This document shows positions 1 to 16,000 of a stretch of 64,000 nt of DNA, in pieces; the first letter of the stretch is position 1, and every line of letters begins with the position of its first letter. The stretch comes from Ascidiella aspersa. Lineage: Eukaryota. The stretch covers positions 34,162,001 to 34,226,000 of the forward strand of contig OZ004610.1 of assembly GCA_963924565.1 (NCBI GenBank). Direction: 5' to 3'. Both the position numbers and the translations under genes were made by a program. The notes below the pieces were generated by a model. It made no database searches, was not told where the DNA came from, and saw only the letters and a program-made list of their open reading frames with translations.

Positions 1-781
1 CCGATTTCAACTTGCTCTCCAAATCCTTCATGTCGTTGTGTTTGAAAACTCGTATCGAAGCACCTGATAATCTGCATCCTAAGACTAACGAAGCGTGGTT
101 TAATTCGTCGCTTAGTATAAGACATCCCTTGCTTACAAGACATGGGATGTTCATTGAATTTGTGGCAAACCCCATTCCAAAAGTCATGCAGCCTTCAACA
201 TCAAGATATCTTGCCATGGTTTCTTCTAATGTCACATGAATATCCCAGTTCCCAATTTCCTGTCTTGAACTGCAAATTCCGACCCCGTATTTTTCAACGG
301 CACCAATAGAAGCTTCAGCACACGGACCTGACTTTTCGGCAAATCCGAGATAGTTGTAAGATCCAAGATTGACGACATTTTTGTGTAGTTTTCCAGTGTG
401 CTCGTAGTGCCAACCAGACATTGTAAACTTACGCTCTGCAATATCGATAGTAGCTCCAGGGACACTGCAAATTGGCCGGTTGAAAACATCCTGAATTCTG
501 TTGTAAATGTTCCTTGTATAGAAGCTTTCGAAACTTGCATAGAGTGGAACAAAATCTCTCATGTCGTCTGGATCTGTTGACGCCAAGTTCTTTTCGATGT
601 GATGTTGACGGAGTAAGTCACGCAAGAATCCAAACGCGGTTACAATTGCGTAACTTATATATGTGATGATTGCATAGAACAAAGGAGTCGGTTCAAATGT
701 TTCTTGAAATTTTGGAGGCTCATTACTGACTCCGTTAGCACAAGGTGGGGAAACTCCATTCCCATTCTGATGTTTAACCAT
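1..781 (-). CDS. SPTLC2: Serine palmitoyltransferase long-chain-base subunit 2/3 (LCB2-type), N-terminal ~260 aa; partial, continues beyond the left edge
   Basis: Manual translation from ATG 781-779 is open to position 1: MVKHQNGNG...[13 protein letters not shown]...[17 protein letters not shown]...[10 protein letters not shown]...[11 protein letters not shown]...SSRQEIG...[49 protein letters not shown]. These are hallmark SPTLC2/3 segments. A TTTCCAG acceptor at 803-802 lies 20 nt before the ATG. The ORF track misses it because there is no stop in the window. Confidence 0.95.
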
Positions 782-1656: not shown

Positions 1657-2933
1657 CCTTTAAATTACTGCTTTACTCAAGAAAAGCTACATTTAAATCA
1701 AGAAAAAAATGTATAAAATACCAGGAAAAGTGTAAAATAATCATTGGGTGAAAAACAGGAAAATATAAAACATTAAAAATAAAACCATAAAAACAATATA
1801 AGGCTTAAAAGATCTCCCCTGATTTTTATTTTAATTCATCTCCAGATACCACCTCATTGTGTGACCTTATTATAAAAATTAGTTTTGTCTCTAGTAGGTT
1901 GCTTTATTTATTTAAATAATATAGTTGTTTATCTTGTTAAAGCTGTTTGATTCCTTATATCCATTTAACATTATGCTTAATCTTTAATATGAAAAGTGAG
2001 TATGTTAATGGCAAGATGTTTTAAACCTGTTTATAGTTGTATACATACGACAACTTTAATATTATAATAACTCATAAATCTCAAAGTACATTAATTTTTA
2101 ATATTTAATTGTTGTCAAACTAACTACAGGCTACAGCCCAAAGACATAAGGGTTTCAATGTCTAACTTTATATTAGATTCCTTAAAAAACATTTAAAATA
2201 AAACGTAATTTGTAAAAGTTTGGAAAGCAAATTTAATACTTAAACGTAAGAAAGCCAACACAAAAAATTCTAAATGACAAAATCAGATAAATAGAATAGT
2301 CTAATATTTGTTCAATCACTTGGCACATGACTATTAATTAAAATTCATAAAAAAATTACATTTTGTTAAACAAAGTCTTATTTAAAACTTTTATGTGCAA
2401 ATCTAATTTCTGGCAATATAATCTAATTTTCAAGTTCAATGGATTTGATTGATAAGTTGGTGTGTGACTAATGTTCATTCAAAAAACACACAGTAAGACC
2501 CATAAAGAAACAATATTTAAAACAGAATCATCTGTAATACCGAAGCATTGAAAGAAGCAGAAATATCTAAGAAGGAATAAGGCCTAACCTTTTCAGATTA
2601 AGAGCTAAATGACAAATAAACCATATAGTTACAGGGTATGGGACTGAAAAGGTGTAGGCAATACAATGACTGTGTAATCGTCACAACTTTCGGAGATATT
2701 GCCCAAAACAAATCTCGGCGCGCCAAGTTCGCCCATACGATTGGGCGCCGTTTATGATTAAGTTACTCCGTAATAATAAGTAATTATAAGTTTAATTACC
2801 AAAATTATTTCCAACTATGTAAAATTTATTCGCTCGCACGTCTAAATACTCCACTGACAAACTCGATTTCTAAATTCTAATTATCTAACGGAACACAAAT
2901 ATGAGTTTAAGATGTCTTGCGTAAGTCGCTAAG

Positions 2934-3066
2934 TGTGGTGACCTAGGGATTGCTAGGTTTTTATGAACTGAATTTAAACTAAACATTACCTGCAACACAA
3001 CATGTCACAAATAAACACAGCGTAATACATAACATAGAATAAGGTACATGGCACAAATTTACCACA
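2934..3066 (-). repeat. 3' LTR of the Gypsy element (133 bp)
   Basis: Base-for-base identical to 6973-7105 by eye; TG...CA ends with 6-bp terminal inverted repeat; adjacent to the PPT. Confidence 0.97.
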
Positions 3067-3078
3067 TTTTTCCCCTCT
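3067..3078 (-). promoter_or_regulatory. Polypurine tract (plus-strand primer)
   Basis: Element-sense AGAGGGGAAAAA directly abuts the 3' LTR. Confidence 0.9.
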
Positions 3079-3149
3079 AAATAATGAAAGTACACTGTAC
3101 ACCCAACAAAAAAACATTGTTTCATTTAAACAATTTTAAGGGTTCATTT

Positions 3150-6100
3150 TTAATGAGTCCAATCCCCAAACCGTGAAGGGGGTTTATGAATTCTGGATGA
3201 ACGCCTCACTTGCAAACCAGTAGGCGAAGCAGGTGGAAACGCAAAAGGAGAAGGTGAAGTAGGAGGTAACTCATCTGTACCATGCGCCAAATCTTCTACC
3301 GATGATCTGTCCAATGCAGATTCTGGTGTAGTAACTGTAGATGGCCTAGTAGTATGGGGAGGCGAATTGGTAGAAATTGGGACTCCATTTTCAAGAGACT
3401 CGCCAAAGGATTCTGCATCTGGCAGTGGAGGGACTTCATGGTCTTCAGGGCAAGGAGCTAAATCCTGCACAGACACTGTCGATTCACGCCCCCCTGGAAG
3501 CCGAATATGTGCAAAACTTTGATTGGCTTCCAGCAAGTCTACCTCATCAACTAAGGGATCTCCTTTATTTCGCACAAATCGTCTCATCAAAACTTTTCCA
3601 GGCTGGAGCAGCCATGATGGTAATGATCTTCCCAGCATAGTTCTTCGTCCGAAGTTTAAGAAACGCTCATGAGGGGTTTGGTTTGTTGAGGTGCAAAGCA
3701 GAGATCTTACGGAATGAAGGGCCTCCACTAAGATTTCTTCCCATCTATCTTCTCCCAGACCCCTGTCCTTTAAAAGGAGTTTAACTGTTCGCCATATGGT
3801 TTGGTTCACTCTTTCACATTGGCTGTTACCAGTAGGATGATAGGGAGTAGTCCGACTTGGTACCACTCCTCTATCGGTCAAAAACTTTTTAAATTCACCA
3901 GAAGCAAAGGCTGTGCCCCGGTCACTGTGGACGAAAGAGGGTAGACCAAAAAGAGCAAAAAGTGAAGTTAGCGAAGCTATGACGGTTTTCGTAGTCATGT
4001 CAGAACAGGGAATTGCAAAAGGAAAACGGGAAAACTCATCCACCACAAAGAGAATGTAATGTCTTCTACCCCTGACAGGTCCTTTAAAATCAATGCTAAT
4101 TCTTTCCCATGGAGCAGAAGCTTTGATTAAAGACTCATTAGACTTGCGGTGAAAACGAGGTTTTACTTCGGCACAAACTTTACATTCTGCACATGTTTGC
4201 CGAACCTCATTAATAGAGTAAGGTAAGTTGCGCGCTTTTATAAAATGAAGTAGGCGTGTTACCCCAGGGTGCCCCAATTGCCTATGGATTTGGACTAGTC
4301 CAGCATTTCCCATGAAACATAGAGAAGAAATTCTTGAAAGGGCATCCGGAGCAGTGTTTAGTTTACCAGGACGGTGGTGAACGCGATATGAAAAGGCCCC
4401 CAGTTCAGCTCGCCACAGCTGGAACTTAGCATTTTTAATTTTACCTGGGCGGACAGGATCAAACATATAAGAAAGAGCACGCTGGTCAGTCAATAATGTA
4501 AAGGTGTTACCATGCAAGAAATGACTCCATTTTCTCGTAGCCTCCATAATAGCTGTAGCCTCCTTCTCCACGATAGGGTAGTTGAGTTCGCTTTTTGTAA
4601 AGGTCCGGGAGTAAAAAGCGACAGGGCGACCACATTGGTTCAGGGTAGCGGCCAGTGCAAATTGGGAGGCATCACACTCCACAGTAAAGGGTTGATAAGG
4701 ATCAATATTTTTCAGACAGGCGGAAGCCAAACTTTTTCTAAGCTCTGCAAAAGCCATAGCTTGTGGTTTAGCCAATGGGAGAGCCTTTTCCTGAATGGCT
4801 TTGACAAGGGGTCGAACCTTATCTGAAAACTGATGAACCCAACGGGCATAGTATGCAAATAGACCCACAGCGCGTCGGAGTTCAGCAAGTGTTTGAGGCA
4901 TGGGCATGTCCAAAAGTGGCTTCAACCGCTCAGGATCAGGCTGGATTTTACCAGGCTTTACCAGGTATCCCAACAGTTGAATTTCCTTCTTTGCAATATG
5001 TGACTTTTCTTCGTTGAAGGTGAGGCCTTCCTTCCCGGCAGCATGTAATAGGGCTTTAAGATTTCTGTCATGTTCCTCCTGTGAGTTTCCCACCACAGTT
5101 ACATTGTCCAGGTAGGCAAACGTTTTTCTTAACCTATATTTTGAAATGATAACATCTATCAGTCTTTGAAAAACAGATACTCCATTGGTCAGTCCAAAAG
5201 GCAGTCTTTTATACTGATATAGTCGACCATCGGCCTCAAAAGCGGTAAAAGGTCTATCTTCTTCATGCAGGGGAATCTGATGATAGGCAGAGCGCAAATC
5301 AAGCGTGCTAAAGAGTTTACCTTTAGCAACAGCATTTACTTGATCATCTATCCTGGGCAGCGGATATGCATCTAGAAATGTAAAGCGATTCACAGTTTGA
5401 GAGTAATCAATGACCAATCGACGGCGGTGATTACCACTCTTTGCAACCAAAACTTGTGCACGCCAAGGACTTCTTGAAGGTTCAATAATATCCTCTTCTA
5501 GAAGTTTTGAAACTTCCTTACGGATAAAATATTGGTCATCAGCTGAATACCGACGTGATTTTACAGCAATAGGTCTGAATCCCCTTTCTAGATCTGTAAA
5601 GAGTCTAAATGGTTTCACATTGGCTGCAGCCACACTACAAGTGCTATTATTTGGGTAAGTAGGGCAAATGTTAAGAAGAGGACGAGGACCCTTAAAGTGA
5701 AAGAATGTCCCTTTATGAAGGCCGAGAAATGATTGTCCCAGAATAACTTCAGCACATAACTCATCAACCACCTCAAATGTCAGAGAATAGCGGGATTTAT
5801 TTAGCCACAATGTTGTACAAGTAGTGCCAATTACCTCAGCTGAAGCCTTTCGTGAAGCCATACCTACTTTGGATCTTTGCCCAGAAACAGGTAAGTGATG
5901 TTCTTGACATACTCGACTATCCAAGTAACATCCAGTTGCTCCAGAATCCACCAAAGCGTTTAGCATCCTGGCACCAAGGGAGACTTTAATAAGTGCAGGA
6001 TATAAACCTGAAGGTGGATCAGGGTGCCCATTCATCATATATATGAAAGAATTTGTGATAGATGCAAAAGTAGACTCTCCACTTTCTGTTTGTGGCAGAA

Positions 6101-6923
6101 CTGAAGCCGATGTCTTGAAGGAACTACTAAATCCCTTCTTTCTTATTCTCGACAAACACTTTTTAGCATAGTGACCTTTGCGACCACAGGAGTTACAAGT
6201 GGCTTCTCTAGCTGGACAAGAGGAGCGGCCTCCAGGATGCATAGAACCTCCACAGTAGAAACAATCTTTCTTAGCTATTGCAAAAACAGTGGACTCAGGA
6301 GTCTCTGAGGCTGCAATGGTCACATTTGTAGTTTCCTTAATAAAGGTCACGGCCTCATTCCTTGCTCGTTCTAACACCAAGGCTTGATCGAAGGCTTCTT
6401 TACAGGTAACCTTATTTTTCTCAAGAAGTCTTTGTCGGATGTCGGGGGCTACCATGCCACTAATAAAGGAGTCGCGAACCATTTCTTGTCGATAAGTATC
6501 TGCATCGACATCCTGAAAATCACAGGATTTAGAAAGCTCATGCAAAGCATACATGAAATCAGTTAGGTTCTCATCCGGTTTCTGTTTTCTCACCATCAAT
6601 AAATGACGAGCTACTGTGATGTTATTTTCTTTCAGAAAAACTTTGTTAAGAGTCTCTTTAGCAGATTGAAAGGTTTCACAGGATTCTACATAGGAGTAGA
6701 GTTTATGTGATATGCCATTGACAAGGAGGTCTAATTTTTCTTCTGATGATAAAGTAATAACACCACCTGTTTCTTGGCTGGTTCCACTCCGATGGCTATT
6801 TTGTGTTTTCTCAATGGCTCGAATAAAACCATCAAATGAACGCCACCAATGTTTATACATTTTAATGGCCTCTGGGTCATTGGGATCAAGTTCCAGACGG
6901 TCTGGCCTCATCAGTCTCTCCAT
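3150..6923 (-). CDS. Gag-Pol polyprotein, 1257 aa (Gag with two zinc knuckles, aspartic protease, reverse transcriptase, RNase H, integrase)
   Basis: Knuckles CFYCGGSMHPGGRSSC and CNSCGRKGHYAKKC. Protease ALVDSGA. RT motifs LDLRSAYHQ, LPFGL and YLDN. RNase H CDAS, EKEA, TDQ, DALSR. Integrase HHCC (HRQLGH...CKVC) and DDE core (DFKGP, SDRG, CER). No frameshift, env or chromodomain seen. Confidence 0.97.
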   Translation of the reverse strand: MERLMRPDRLELDPNDPEAIKMYKHWWRSFDGFIRAIEKTQNSHRSGTSQETGGVITLSSEEKLDLLVNGISHKLYSYVESCETFQSAKETLNKVFLKENNITVARHLLMVRKQKPDENLTDFMYALHELSKSCDFQDVDADTYRQEMVRDSFISGMVAPDIRQRLLEKNKVTCKEAFDQALVLERARNEAVTFIKETTNVTIAASETPESTVFAIAKKDCFYCGGSMHPGGRSSCPAREATCNSCGRKGHYAKKCLSRIRKKGFSSSFKTSASVLPQTESGESTFASITNSFIYMMNGHPDPPSGLYPALIKVSLGARMLNALVDSGATGCYLDSRVCQEHHLPVSGQRSKVGMASRKASAEVIGTTCTTLWLNKSRYSLTFEVVDELCAEVILGQSFLGLHKGTFFHFKGPRPLLNICPTYPNNSTCSVAAANVKPFRLFTDLERGFRPIAVKSRRYSADDQYFIRKEVSKLLEEDIIEPSRSPWRAQVLVAKSGNHRRRLVIDYSQTVNRFTFLDAYPLPRIDDQVNAVAKGKLFSTLDLRSAYHQIPLHEEDRPFTAFEADGRLYQYKRLPFGLTNGVSVFQRLIDVIISKYRLRKTFAYLDNVTVVGNSQEEHDRNLKALLHAAGKEGLTFNEEKSHIAKKEIQLLGYLVKPGKIQPDPERLKPLLDMPMPQTLAELRRAVGLFAYYARWVHQFSDKVRPLVKAIQEKALPLAKPQAMAFAELRKSLASACLKNIDPYQPFTVECDASQFALAATLNQCGRPVAFYSRTFTKSELNYPIVEKEATAIMEATRKWSHFLHGNTFTLLTDQRALSYMFDPVRPGKIKNAKFQLWRAELGAFSYRVHHRPGKLNTAPDALSRISSLCFMGNAGLVQIHRQLGHPGVTRLLHFIKARNLPYSINEVRQTCAECKVCAEVKPRFHRKSNESLIKASAPWERISIDFKGPVRGRRHYILFVVDEFSRFPFAIPCSDMTTKTVIASLTSLFALFGLPSFVHSDRGTAFASGEFKKFLTDRGVVPSRTTPYHPTGNSQCERVNQTIWRTVKLLLKDRGLGEDRWEEILVEALHSVRSLLCTSTNQTPHERFLNFGRRTMLGRSLPSWLLQPGKVLMRRFVRNKGDPLVDEVDLLEANQSFAHIRLPGGRESTVSVQDLAPCPEDHEVPPLPDAESFGESLENGVPISTNSPPHTTRPSTVTTPESALDRSSVEDLAHGTDELPPTSPSPFAFPPASPTGLQVRRSSRIHKPPSRFGDWTH

Positions 6924-6959
6924 GGCGATTGGTAAAGCACAAGGTCAATGTTAACAAAG

Positions 6960-6971
6960 CAGTTCATAAAA
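6960..6971 (-). promoter_or_regulatory. Non-tRNA primer-binding site, complementary to the element's own LTR (putative self-priming PBS)
   Basis: Element-sense TTTTATGAACTG starts 1 nt after the 5' LTR and is the exact reverse complement of CAGTTCATAAAA at 7009-6998. It lacks the TGG start of a tRNA PBS. Confidence 0.85.
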
Positions 6972-6972
6972 T

Positions 6973-7105
6973 TGTGGTGACCTAGGGATTGCTAGGTTTT
7001 TATGAACTGAATTTAAACTAAACATTACCTGCAACACAACATGTCACAAATAAACACAGCGTAATACATAACATAGAATAAGGTACATGGCACAAATTTA
7101 CCACA
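6973..7105 (-). repeat. 5' LTR of the Gypsy element (133 bp)
   Basis: Identical to 2934-3066. Contains initiator-like TCAGTT (7010-7005) and an ACCTAG/CTAGGT hairpin (6997-6980). Confidence 0.97.
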
Positions 7106-10014
7106 CTAAGTAAATATTGAATTTAATTTAAACTCCACAATTGAAATACGTTACGAGATTCCTTTAATGAGTTAACGTAAAAACCCAAACATTTCAAACA
7201 CACAACTTGCTTGGCAACGAAGCAAACAAAAGACAACTTCGACGAAACGAAATCAATTTCTTTGAGTTTTAGATAAACAAAACAAACTTACGTAACTACA
7301 ACCTACGTCAGTTCTGAGAGGAGTCTATTTCAAAACAAACTCTGCCGCAATTTAGCAAGGAAACAAATTATAACCAATAATTATTGCGTTCTAGGATTTT
7401 TTTTACGTCTTTCATAAAACATTTAGCTAAATACGACGAAGAATGGGAGTTAAGAGAATGTCTACTTTTATTTGTGACGTAATTTGCTAACCGCAAAAGT
7501 GGGAGTGACCATTATTAATCGGTCATGCGTTACCCTAGCGGAAAGTTAATAACTTGAGGGGAGATTGTTATAGGAAATAACGGGATTTTAAGGAGTTAAG
7601 GCCTTAAAACACAACCTAATGATTTATCGGGGCAGCGAAACAAGACAAATATTAAACTGTTGGTCGTAATCTGTTTTACAAAAGGTAACTCAGCTAATAC
7701 TGTTCTAAACTTAAAATATAGCCAACGTTTTGGCCTAGGAAGGTTCAATACTGTAAAATTAGCCATTGTTCAAACAGGCAGTAGGATACAATTCCTGAAA
7801 GAGTCACATGATCCCGCTATATTAAGTAAATTTGCTTAACTAACTGCAACGTCTACCAAGTCTATTCGATCGCGGAAGCCTTACTGAAATATAGGCTACA
7901 TTCTGATTTTACTAAATAAGTAGGGTTTAGACGTAGTATGTATATTAAAGTTAACATAGGTAACATTTTTGAACGTTGCTAATAACTTTGATTTCATTAG
8001 TACATTTTGAAAATGATCAAAACGTTCAAAATGCGATATTCCTTGTACGCCTAACTAAAACCTCCAACCATTATGCTTTGAAGTACCGTAAGGTTTGAAT
8101 AAGCAACAGAGATGCGGTTGAACAACATACAAAAAACACTCTTATATGAAACAAAAAGTCTTGAGCTGAATGTACGCTTAGTGTAAGACATAATCTTTCG
8201 TAATATTCTGACATTTTAAATCCGCTTATAGAATACGATTAGCCATGATTGCTGAAGGATATTCCACTTAGGTCAAAGCACAAAACAAAACGGAGTTGTC
8301 TGTTGAAATATTTGATTGTTGATATTTGTTACTTAGTAGCTCATGTAAACAGGCAAGTTAATTCGCAACGCGTAACGTGAAATGCACATAATTATCGCTA
8401 GAACTTTGTATGTTTTTCCGATATCCGATATTTTGAGCAAACTATTCTTCGCTGGTATTCAGCTGTTTTCTGAAATATTCACATTTCACGGTAGAAAACT
8501 TACTCGTTTAGAAAGATACGCTGTATTATATATTTTTCAAAGCAGAGTCGCTGTTTCTGAAAGTCATTACAGCACTAAACAGTCTTTTTTGGGGGCGGAT
8601 TCTGCTCAATCACTAATTAGGCTCTGGTAAACTCCTAAACTAAACTTTCAATCTGTTTTTAACCTTACCTAAATATTTAAACATATAACCTGTTGTTATT
8701 CACCATAGTATCCGTGTGTTCAAAGTTTTTTTTCTTTCTTTTTCTACTTTGACCTGATAAAGCACGGTTGTGTGGAAGCTTGTCGAGAATGCAATACAAT
8801 TTGTGTGCAGCCTGTTCTTATGTGTTATGTAAACTTACTGACTGTACAGCACCACACTATAGCACCGAAAGCAGGTTTTATTGACAGCACAAACTCACAA
8901 AGTTCAGTCATTGCCCGGGGGTCACATCGGAATAAAGCAACAAAAAGTAAACACTTGGTACAATGGATAACACGCCACTAATAATATAGGCCTCGTGAAT
9001 GACAAGAAGCAGACATGTTTACAGAATAAAGTTTCCATCTTTTAAAAATGGGAGATGGAACTTTAGTTTTTTCCAAATTAGATTAGAAATTATACTAAAC
9101 TTAAAATTTTCACTTCAAATACAATTAAAATTGGATCACTTTAAAACGATTTTAAACAACAAGAATTTATATTTTTTTCTAAATTATGATTAGAAGTTAT
9201 ACCAAAACCAGAACTATTTTTTTTTTACCTTAAATAGTAAAGTGAGTTAGTTAGTAATATCTTATATATATTTTAGAACGTTTGTGAGTGGTCAGTCGTC
9301 AGCATGTTCGCCAGGTAGGTCGCTGGTATTTTCATACAATTCAAGATCATTTTGTAGCCTACTATATATGGAAGTGCGTTTTAGGATTTTAAAAACTTAA
9401 AAACTTCGTTAGACAAATTTAAATTTTGAAAAAAGCCCAAATTAAATAAAACAAAGAGTTAGGGTAGGCCTACACTTATTAATATAGATTGAAAACGTTG
9501 AAAGTAAATAAAAAGTTATTCGAAACGTTCAAGATGATACCTACTTCTGTCTGGGCTTTGATATTTTTATTACGTATAAATTGAAAACATTATTTAGAAT
9601 TATAACAATATTATTTGTCGTTTTGCTTTAAATCGTCAAATTAGTTAACGAGAACAATCTTAGTCGAAAGTTGCTGTCCAGGCAAGTGTAGACATGTCAT
9701 TTTAGGCCTTTAATGTTTTGAGAAGCGATAAAACTAGTTTAATATTTAACAGAAGGCAACACTTGAAGTAAACCACAATCCACAACGTCATGGAAGTACT
9801 GGTTGAATAATTATTCTAAGAATGACACTTGAGTTTGGTTTTCGTTAATCTGTAGCTCGCGCTATTTATAACATGGACCGATAAAGATTTGCGCAACTTT
9901 ATTTATTTTTGGTCACCCACCTAGATATAGGACATAGGTATTTGTCAAGTCGAGAACATAGCTTAGCTTTATCTCAGAATGTAGACTATTAAAAAAAATA
10001 AAAGTTTCACTGAC

Positions 10015-10160
10015 ACGAGGTGTCCGATAATATCGGATCGGAGTCGATACCCGGTTAAAAGTTGTAGTATCGGTACTCGTCCGATAATATAGGGTGGTAT
10101 CGGTACTCGTCCGATACTATAGGGTGGTATCGGTACTCGTCCGATACTATAGGTTGGTCC
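10015..10160. repeat. 30-bp tandem repeat x3 within a dispersed TATCGG/CCGATA repeat family
   Basis: GTATCGGTACTCGTCCGATA(A/C)TATAGG(G/T)TG at 10067, 10097 and 10127, each with an internal TATCGG/CCGATA inverted repeat. Related sequence at about 24386-24430, 24588-24640 and, inverted, 34575-34612. Confidence 0.8.
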
Positions 10161-13070: not shown

Positions 13071-16000
13071 CTGAAACAAATAAAATTTGGTAAATATTGA
13101 GAAAATATTTCAAATAAACAGGAAAAATATATAGTGGAAAATCAACAGCATTTTGTTACAAAAATTTTAAGAAACACACCTATTTATTATTTGAAATTTT
13201 AAACAATGTTGTGTTATTACATTTTGCAATTTAAATTGTAATGGCAAACCAGTAGATAAACATGTATTTCAATTTAATGCGATGAAGTAATCAACGTTTA
13301 AATCAAAGATTCTTGGGACACAAAGTTATTTGCAGAGGCGATATTCTACGACAGCTAATGAGAAAATAAGAGACGATGGAGTTAGAAAAAACGCCTTTAT
13401 CGACTAATGCAAAGTACGTTGTTGTTGCTTCAAAACATGAACTGACCCGTTAACGTGGCAGACTTTTGCGAGCAGTTCACTTCGCTTGTGCTTGTTCGAG
13501 TGTTGTTCGATTCCAGTAAGTCCAACAACTGAATAGCTGCAACCTGGTTGTAAGCAGTGGAAGTGCGACGTGTTACGCTGCCTGTCAATCAAATATAGGG
13601 GGTTACGATGCCTGTCAATCAAAAAATAAGGGGTTACGGTTCAGGGTTGGCACACAATTTTTATAAAAAATGAAAGACATTTAAACACCTAAAACTGAAC
13701 CGTTAGGCGTTTTTGTTAAATAATTAAACAAACATTAAAATGGAATAGCCAACACAACAACAAATAAATGACCAAAATAAGGGGTTACGGTTCAGGGTTG
13801 GCACACAATTTTTATAAAAAATGAAAGACATTTAAACACCTAAAACTGAACCGTTAGGCGTTTTTGTTAAATAATTAAACAAACATTAAAATGGAATAGC
13901 CAACACAACAACAAATAAATGACAACTGGTTTTATAAGCACATTTATTTTTAACATATAATTCAAGCTGCACATAAAATAAATTCAATCACTAAAGATTT
14001 TGCGAAAGATACAGGGTTTTACCAAGACTTTTCAATGCGTAGATTAACTCAAAGATACTCGTAGACGAAAGATCCAAGCATGTGGCAACCCTTCCTGTAT
14101 GCTGCGATTTGCTACAGTACTTTTATTTACAGAGATTTGCTACCGTACCTGTATTTGCAGTTGTCTCTCTTGCAGTCTTCCTTCCCTCTAAACCTCTCGA
14201 ATCCAGATTGTTCCAATGTGTCAGCTTTAAGATGTTGTCTTCTGTGAGTTCCAACCTTAGCGCTGTCAGTGCATCTGGAAAGAAATATTCCGATTAAACC
14301 AGTGTTTCTCAAAGTAGGGTAACATTTTGGTATATTTAGTAGTTGCCAGACCAAACACATATTCTTATGAAAAGTGCAAAATTTTTCACAAGAGTTTCAA
14401 TAAAAAAAATAGCACTGGATGTTTTTAAACTTCATTCAAGTTTCACATAGATTTCTCAAGTCTACTTGTTTTATGACGTCACCTCTATAAAAAATAATGT
14501 AGACACTGTACACACAAACCAAATTTATTGTTTAGAGGTTCGTTTTTAAAAAGTTCAAAAATCGTGCAGTTAAGCTATGCAAGGTGATTTTTAGAGTAAG
14601 TAGAAGTACATTGGCCAATATATGAATAGAATTATAGAAGCGCCATCAAACTTTTAACTTTTAGTTTAAACAACTTATGACAAAGTTAATTTCCCAACTT
14701 ATTGACTTAGTTATGCCAATAGAAAAAAAGTAGAGCTATTCCAGTTAATTTTTCATTTTTTTACTCACTTGAAGGTGCATCTTAGGCAGTGGAAGTGTGT
14801 GCTTGCCTTGGTGTGCTGACAACCTTCCACTCCACAATCCTGTGCTGCTTTGAACCTCTTGAAGTCATCCCTCACCAAACCCGCAACCCTCTCGTGGTGT
14901 TGCTGGTGCTTGTACATGTGCGTGCGGCCAGTGAAGCGGTAATTACAACCGTCACGTGTGCAGTGGTAGTGAGACACCTGGTGGTGGAACGACATAGAAA
15001 TCTTACACGTCGAAGGGAATAGTTTTAAATATAAAAAAATTTGGCTATTTTTGGCCAAAATTTTGCCAATTTTGATCAAATCAACAAAGTTAAATTGGTA
15101 AAATATAATTTTAATCGCGAAGAAATAAACTTGTAATGTAAGTAAGTAGCTCATTAGCTCAGTGGTCAGCTCAAACGAGATAAAAATTAAAATATTTCTA
15201 ACACAATTTAAGGTAGTTAAAACAGTAATACTTTCTTTGTTAATAAAAATGTAAAACAAAAATCTAGTTTTTTTCATAACAAAACAAAACATTTAAATTA
15301 TAAAAAAAAAAATAATAAATTGGAATTAAAACGTGTTAATTCAATTCCAAGATGATGGTGAAAAGGTAAAAATTGTAAGAAGGTGAAAAAAACCTAAACA
15401 GCGATGAATCCAGAGAAATATTTAAGGCTGAAAAATCTGACAATCGATTTTATATTTTAACACTACAAGATTATGCATAATTATTTGTATTGAGTTGGGA
15501 AAATGACATTGACCAATTACACACTGGTGTGATCTCGGAATTTTTGCTTTTAAGATTGTGTTTAGGTTAGAACACGGTTTAAGAAGGCAAATTAACAAAC
15601 CATTTAGTGGAGAATTTACGGGAAAACACTTTAGTTGAAAAACCTTTAATAGTCAGTGGTGTAGGGAGTTTATCGCGGGCGAGCACTGGTGCAATTCTTT
15701 TCTAAAGTGCGCAATCCAAAAATATAATAAAAATATTTGATATTTTACCACTAAACAGTTGTAATCAGTTATGTTAATTTGGGGGCTTAGGGAGTTTACC
15801 TTGAACAGCATTGTACACTGGGGGTCGCCACAGTTCTCCGATGATTCGAATCTCTTAAATCCATCCATGACGTCATTATTGATGCGAAACTTTGCGAACA
15901 TTGAGTCGTCGATTGGTTTGGTCAGGGTCGGTCTGAAATAATGGGAGGAATGGTTCAATAGGGAATTTTATGTGGTTTCAATCTATCTGTATTGCACTTA

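Follow-up and report, generated by a model that had tools for sequence, protein, structure and literature searches.

A natural YxDN motif in the reverse transcriptase of an animal Ty3/Gypsy lineage, seen in a young element of Ascidiella aspersa

A recently inserted Ty3/Gypsy retrotransposon of Ascidiella aspersa carries YLDN in motif C of its reverse transcriptase (RT). Sequence comparisons suggest, with a probability that we put at roughly 85%, that its lineage naturally encodes YxDN and that the RT polymerises on two carboxylates, Asp543 and Asp607, together with Asn608. Activity of the Asn enzyme is likely, judging from its conservation and from the young insertions. YxDD is the textbook mark of a working RT, and copies with YxDN may be scored as dead in annotation; the large animal Gypsy lineage described here retains the Asn while still inserting. 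Papers are cited by PMC number.

Results

Structure and age of the element

The element occupies positions 2934-7105 (4,172 bp) of the window, that is, of the whole 64-kb stretch of DNA that was analysed (Table 1). Its gag-pol frame, the sole long frame of the window, is open on the minus strand from 6944 to the stop at 3150. Residues are numbered as in P0001, which begins one codon upstream of the first Met. The frame holds no env and gave no chromodomain match in a Pfam scan. The order gag-protease-RT-RNase H-integrase, the TG...CA LTRs, the polypurine tract and the 5-bp duplication place the element in Ty3/Gypsy. YxDD in motif C, a usual feature of this group on which membership is not denied, is here YLDN. 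Bel/Pao elements are recognised by RT phylogeny, a triple Cys-His gag box and env; this element has two knuckles and no env, and its relatives grouped with Gypsy-type outgroups in a tree that held no Bel/Pao row.

Table 1. Features of the element, with positions in the window
Feature	Position	Strand	Remarks
Target-site duplication CTAAG, left copy	2929..2933	+	
3' LTR	2934..3066	-	identical to 5' LTR over 133 bp
Polypurine tract	3067..3078	-	from sequence
gag-pol frame, single and uninterrupted	3150..6923	-	1,257 aa from first Met; two zinc knuckles, protease, RT, RNase H, integrase
RT motif C, YLDN	5103..5114	-	codons TAC CTG GAC AAT; aligns with YLDD of Ty3 RT
Asn608 codon; Asp607 codon	5103-5105; 5106-5108	-	within RT motif C
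Catalytic Asp543, RT motif A	5298..5300	-	Asp in 63/63 Asn-bearing alignment rows
Primer binding site	6960..6971	-	one base past 5' LTR; complementary to 6998-7009
5' LTR	6973..7105	-	133 bp, TG...CA
Self-primer segment (predicted)	6998..7009	-	12-nt arm in 5' LTR; ends in poly(A)-signal-like run
Target-site duplication CTAAG, right copy	7106..7110	+	perfect match to left copy

As a preliminary description of this DNA had stated, the frame is uninterrupted, the LTRs are identical and the target duplication is perfect. In four DNA reads from another sample, 2928 is followed directly by 7106, so that both the element and one target copy are lacking. The insertion is therefore missing from at least one haplotype, and this empty site indicates that it is recent; together with the identical LTRs it bears out the earlier impression of a recently transposed copy. 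Elsewhere in the window, an open frame at 2-781 (minus strand) encodes an aminotransferase class I/II domain, presumably similar to serine palmitoyltransferase, and the element lies about 2.1 kb upstream of it on the same strand. An exact 150-bp tandem duplication (13623-13923) and a three-copy 30-bp tandem repeat (10064-10158) are not related to the YLDN finding.

A second reading of the minus strand at 5103-5114 confirmed the four codons of the motif and its context FAYLDNVTVVG, in which YLDN represents residues 605-608. Asn608 aligns to the second Asp of YLDD in Ty3 RT (PDB 4OL8, the best sequence match, E 8e-49), which is D214 in the numbering of PMC5371799. The second Asp had been described as near-invariant, and in distant Gypsy relatives it is (78/78 Asp); the statement does not hold across LTR elements, where nematode Bel/Pao elements have YVDN (PMC554778, PMC9094657). 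RT-RNase H as modelled with confidence by AlphaFold (mean pLDDT 91.2) resembles the RTs of CaMV, MLV and Ty3, fold comparison placing CaMV and MLV slightly ahead of Ty3. The predicted fold is that of a normal, intact RT-RNase H and is silent on activity.

Asn608 in sibling copies and in reads

Asn608 might be a private point change that inactivated this copy after its insertion, for which a single GAT>AAT change had been proposed, or the assembly might be wrong. Each Asp of YXDD is required in HIV-1 and MLV RT (PMC554778), and private changes do happen at this codon, since one sibling copy has a private Lys. A DNA search of the same genome gave at least 27 matches. The ten other family copies that cover codon 608 read AAT in nine cases and AAA, the Lys, in one, and never an Asp codon. 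The nine Asn copies amount to about seven independent sites, as two pairs are duplicates, and one of the copies is only ~80% identical. Three more family copies account for five matches that lack codon 608 by deletion or end short of it; the remaining 11 comprise ten of a YLDD sister family and one that does not span the site.

Codon 608 was covered by about 50 DNA and 11 RNA reads from runs under the same species label. Neither GAT nor GAC nor any other alternative letter was listed at 5103-5114, variants being listed only with at least three reads from two starts, while 18 other read differences were listed in the same 241-base stretch. The RNA reads came from one run and library (143 reads, both strands), in which no transcription start was listed. 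The lack of variants in DNA and RNA reads excludes an assembly error, and the Asn in nine of ten other covering copies and in 101 of the best 120 database relatives excludes chance. A private inactivating change is refuted by the criteria that the preliminary description itself had set, as siblings and reads carry Asn. Its other option, natural use of Asn by the lineage, finds strong support in siblings, reads and relatives.

The family has inserted recently at other sites too: L059 has identical LTRs and its own perfect target duplication, and the LTRs of L058 differ at two bases. L156 (G000:C6:4831088-4832697) is a 1,610-bp internally deleted derivative without RT, flanked by identical LTRs and a perfect target duplication; it was either copied in trans or deleted post-insertion. 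Two family copies lie in one rearranged or nested array (L060, G000:C4:3140500-3150499), and L062 and L063 have flanks in common that look like a segmental duplication.

The YLDD sister family (L071-L079, on several contigs of G000) is young as well, its 308-bp LTRs being identical in several copies, and it also has a self-complementary primer site. It is about 57% identical to the Asn family in RT-RNase H, lives in the same genome and falls, together with proteins of Ciona intestinalis, within the Asn-rich clade described below.

Asn and Asp among relatives

A database search with the RT-RNase H region gave, among its best 120 relatives, 101 with xxDN and 19 with xxDD. With an Asp-bearing Ciona protein as query, a control for query bias, Asn was still found in 75 of 120 matches. 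Among 150 representatives at 50% clustering, with identity measured to the query, Asn and Asp numbered 10 and 6 at 50% identity or more (one not covering the site), 16 and 20 at 45-50%, 5 and 13 at 37-45% (one other residue), and 0 and 78 below 36.5%, the range of the distant Gypsy relatives. Carriers of Asn with named hosts came from shark, ray and soft coral, those of Asp from Ciona, sea cucumber, cockroach, whipworm and woodlouse, the woodlouse record being flagged as possible contamination. The 125 Asn rows formed 93 clusters at 80% identity, with a median pairwise identity of 55%. In 73 metagenome loci, some of which share a sample, the codon was covered 51 times and read AAT (19), AAC (12), GAC (10), GAT (8) or otherwise (two). 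Use of both Asn codons indicates that the residue itself is maintained and that we are not looking at one old mutation. A scan of viral contigs gave no relative, and the ESM Atlas returned generic RT-RNase H clusters only.

Families are uniform at this site. Nine Asn clusters had Asn in all 72 covering members listed, and one Asp cluster had Asp in 12 of 12; 15 members were listed per cluster, and 66 of 150 did not span the site. This uniformity bears on the idea that the gene encodes Asn while the working enzyme has Asp. A-to-I RNA editing and protein deamidation both convert Asn to Asp, a single transition separates the codons of the two residues, and proteins have hardly any other residue at this site. 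Yet for the approximately 11 RNA reads over the codon, few as they are and from both strands of one library, no such letter is listed, and edited RNA would be expected to yield Asp progeny, contrary to the 72 uniform members. A following Gly favours fast deamidation, but the next residue is Val or Ile. We consider such recoding very improbable.

Phylogeny

A FastTree phylogeny was built from 193 rows (125 Asn, 68 Asp) with the trait column removed; rows with fewer than 280 aligned residues or with another residue at the site were left out, and distant rows were thinned to one in five as outgroup. Asp occupies the outgroup and the early branches. All but one of the 125 Asn rows fall in one clade of 150 rows (support 98), which also contains 26 Asp rows, and the query element sits in a starred clade of 21 rows, all Asn. 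The tree requires 12 Asp/Asn changes, four of them forced by well-supported branches, and IQ-TREE runs with 43 and 72 rows were concordant (7 and 10 changes, 4 and 5 forced). As deep branches are weakly supported, the number and direction of these changes are approximate. A single Asn clade was rejected in an AU test under LG+G4 (p-AU 4.3e-8, or 2.0e-8 without P0235), the 43-row subset for which was selected after the first tree had been seen.

Asp is thus probably the ancestral state, Asn is old, and reversions to Asp were repeated. The trees suggest that Asn arose near the base of the large subclade and once more outside it, and that several families returned to Asp. The outside case, P0235, is distantly related (37% identity); it has YVDN, stands on a starred branch among Asp rows and probably gained its Asn separately.

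When 125 Asn and 54 Asp in-clade rows were compared column by column, strong raw links appeared at positions 763 (in RNase H), 656, 541, 500 and 726; no compensating site passed an independent-pair test (four starred pairs; median p = 1 in the output examined). Relative to the outgroup, Asp and Asn rows of the clade alike have Ala547 for Gly, Gly582-Val583 for Ala-Pro and one extra residue after the fingers DY. That these three background changes permit Asn is speculation.

Conservation of the catalytic residues

A 90-row alignment, whose rows were chosen as near full length and so favour intact frames, contains 63 Asn rows. None of these departs from Asp543, Asp607, the protease Asp or any of the four acids of RNase H; the D, D and E of integrase are present in 62, 63 and 63 of them. 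Variants common to independent family copies comprise 25 synonymous and 18 nonsynonymous changes, as opposed to 69 and 207 for private variants (p = 2.5e-5), synonymous sites making up 23% in this comparison. RT and RNase H taken by themselves showed a weak trend (shared 8/12, private 25/70). Pairwise dN/dS to young copies ranged from 0.15 to 1.8 and is noisy, with few changes, and across families dS was saturated and gave no ratio.

The polymerase of the Asn families could nevertheless be dead, its elements being copied in trans by an Asp relative while the other domains are kept. A candidate helper is at hand in the young Asp sister family of the same genome, and L156, if not deleted after insertion, would mean that copying in trans may occur in the family. 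However, retention of Asp543 and Asp607 in 63 of 63 rows is unexpected for a dead polymerase over 45% protein divergence. The two families also differ in LTR length (133 vs 308 bp) and in primer sequence. Concentration of nearly all Asn rows in one diversified subclade, with a starred clade that is Asn throughout, speaks against help in trans as well, and we give this explanation a slight chance compared with an Asn enzyme that works.

The self-complementary primer site

The primer binding site pairs with the predicted self-primer segment of the 5' LTR with a fold z of -5.7, matched by none of 200 shuffles, and an inner hairpin sits between the two arms. Among related loci, 33 of 78 had a usable 5' end; a self-complementary site was scored where there was a perfect arm of at least 10 bases that no more than one in 30 shuffles attained. 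By this measure it is present in 19 of 23 Asn loci, 6 of 8 Asp loci and one of two loci without a readable motif, the loci not all being independent. One of the Asp loci, L079 (G000:C2:23173500-23179500), is rearranged, and without it the Asp count is 5 of 7. In L079 a 51-base inverted LTR copy occupies the expected position of the primer site, which suggests aberrant priming or strand transfer.

The arms vary between families while the pairing is maintained. In the older copies L064, L065 and L067 one base is changed on both arms with the pairing kept. As primer copying would itself enforce the pairing, this is not independent covariation; the paired change supports self-priming. The predicted primer, of about 11 bases, usually has AG at its start and, in most loci, a poly(A)-signal-like sequence at its end (window 6998-7009, L071-L153), so that primer pairing might mask the poly(A) signal in the 5' LTR. 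Self-priming appears, from these sequences, to extend to another Gypsy branch.

The preliminary description had considered Asn to be possibly co-adapted with self-priming. The site is common in Asn loci, for which self-priming could be a permissive background. Self-priming Tf1/sushi and plant lineages use YxDD. Asp loci share the primer site both outside the Asn-rich clade (L104, L115 and L136; support 96) and nested inside it (L071, L081), from which it follows that the predicted self-priming predates Asn and persists with Asp. Tf1/sushi and certain plant lineages are moreover reported to self-prime (PMC6317226, PMC4600332). Asn is the state of the lineage, as one of the two options of the description had it, but self-complementarity of the primer site is not limited to Asn, and co-adaptation of the two has little to recommend it.

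Discussion

The data favor a lineage that naturally encodes YxDN, and we propose how its RT might work. Asp543 and Asp607 would hold the metals and Asn608 would serve as a neutral helper. Judging from the Ty1 and Ty3 mutants, the third acid may aid chemistry, pyrophosphate release and processivity without being strictly needed, and the Asn enzyme would work, though probably more slowly. Compensation is needed somewhere, since the same substitution abolishes transposition in yeast. Speculatively, the short 4.2-kb template and the older clade-wide background changes could absorb the cost in speed. Priming is predicted to be Tf1-like, by the first ~11 bases of the RNA, and would be older than and independent of the Asn.

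A more far-reaching reading, which we offer tentatively and with the odds against it, is that the third catalytic aspartate has been made optional in an old, widespread animal Gypsy lineage, whose families alternate between Asn and Asp and in this way tune the speed or processivity of the polymerase. The lineage would then be a self-priming one separate from Tf1/sushi, with an 11-base primer that overlaps the poly(A) signal and whose pairing also hides the signal of the 5' LTR.

What the third carboxylate does can be tested on unaltered proteins, since the lineage offers many natural sister enzymes with Asn or Asp that are 55-65% identical, and this genome contains two of them. If the third Asp is indeed optional, these enzymes would reveal how an RT makes up for the substitution that immobilises Ty1 and Ty3. 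Whether Asn can replace Asp in a working element had been left open for the nematode elements (PMC554778).

Comparison with known systems

The element shares its Asn with laboratory mutants of two yeast elements, in the case of Ty3 by alignment. Ty1 D211N polymerises with a 223-fold lower kpol, prefers Mn and binds pyrophosphate more tightly; its transposition is lost and returns, to 5-10%, only with RNase H suppressors (PMC2148107), in agreement with the earlier statement that this mutant polymerises yet fails to transpose. Ty3 D214N is still active, if less processive, but fails to transpose; D151 and D213, on the other hand, are required (PMC5371799). Unlike in these mutants, Asn is here natural, old and present in recently inserted copies.

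Like Tf1/sushi elements, the Ascidiella element has a primer site just past the 5' LTR that pairs with a short stretch within the LTR (PMC4600332, PMC6317226). In that group the paired stretch forms the 5' end of the RNA, from which RNase H releases it as primer. Unlike them, it has no chromodomain match in Pfam, and its gag has two zinc knuckles. Named hosts among its relatives are invertebrates and cartilaginous fishes. As to a placement among chromoviruses, our trees contained no named chromovirus.

Close relatives annotated as Ciona intestinalis (P0026, P0133, P0411) suggest a possible kinship with Cigr-1 and Mag; these proteins carry YLDD, unlike the YLDN element. We take the element size, the single frame and the short LTRs to fit Cigr-1, a likeness by description only. 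The supplement of PMC6238403 places Cigr-1 under Mag. In the literature that we found, with subscription papers and Repbase reports mostly outside its scope, YxDN is not described for Gypsy elements, nor is the primer site for this clade; the available portions of PMC10415136, PMC3601003, PMC6934838, PMC2774666 and PMC3118150 do not address a YxDN motif, and those of PMC6238403 and PMC8556966 mention neither motif nor primer.

The closest precedent is provided by nematode Bel/Pao elements with a natural YVDN, namely Cer7-Cer12 of C. elegans, for which activity was called an open biochemical question (PMC554778), and Atlas of Ancylostoma ceylanicum (PMC9094657). Like the present element, these LTR elements look intact and naturally have Asn where YxDD has its second Asp, and both are known from sequence. 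They belong, however, to a different superfamily, which implies that the Asn originated independently, and the Ascidiella element differs from them in being env-less, 4.2 kb long and equipped with a self-complementary primer site, and in a state that toggles between related families. All in all, the comparison of sequences points to a second origin of the YxDN variant already known from Bel/Pao, here old, reversible and residing in a widespread, probably self-priming animal Gypsy lineage.
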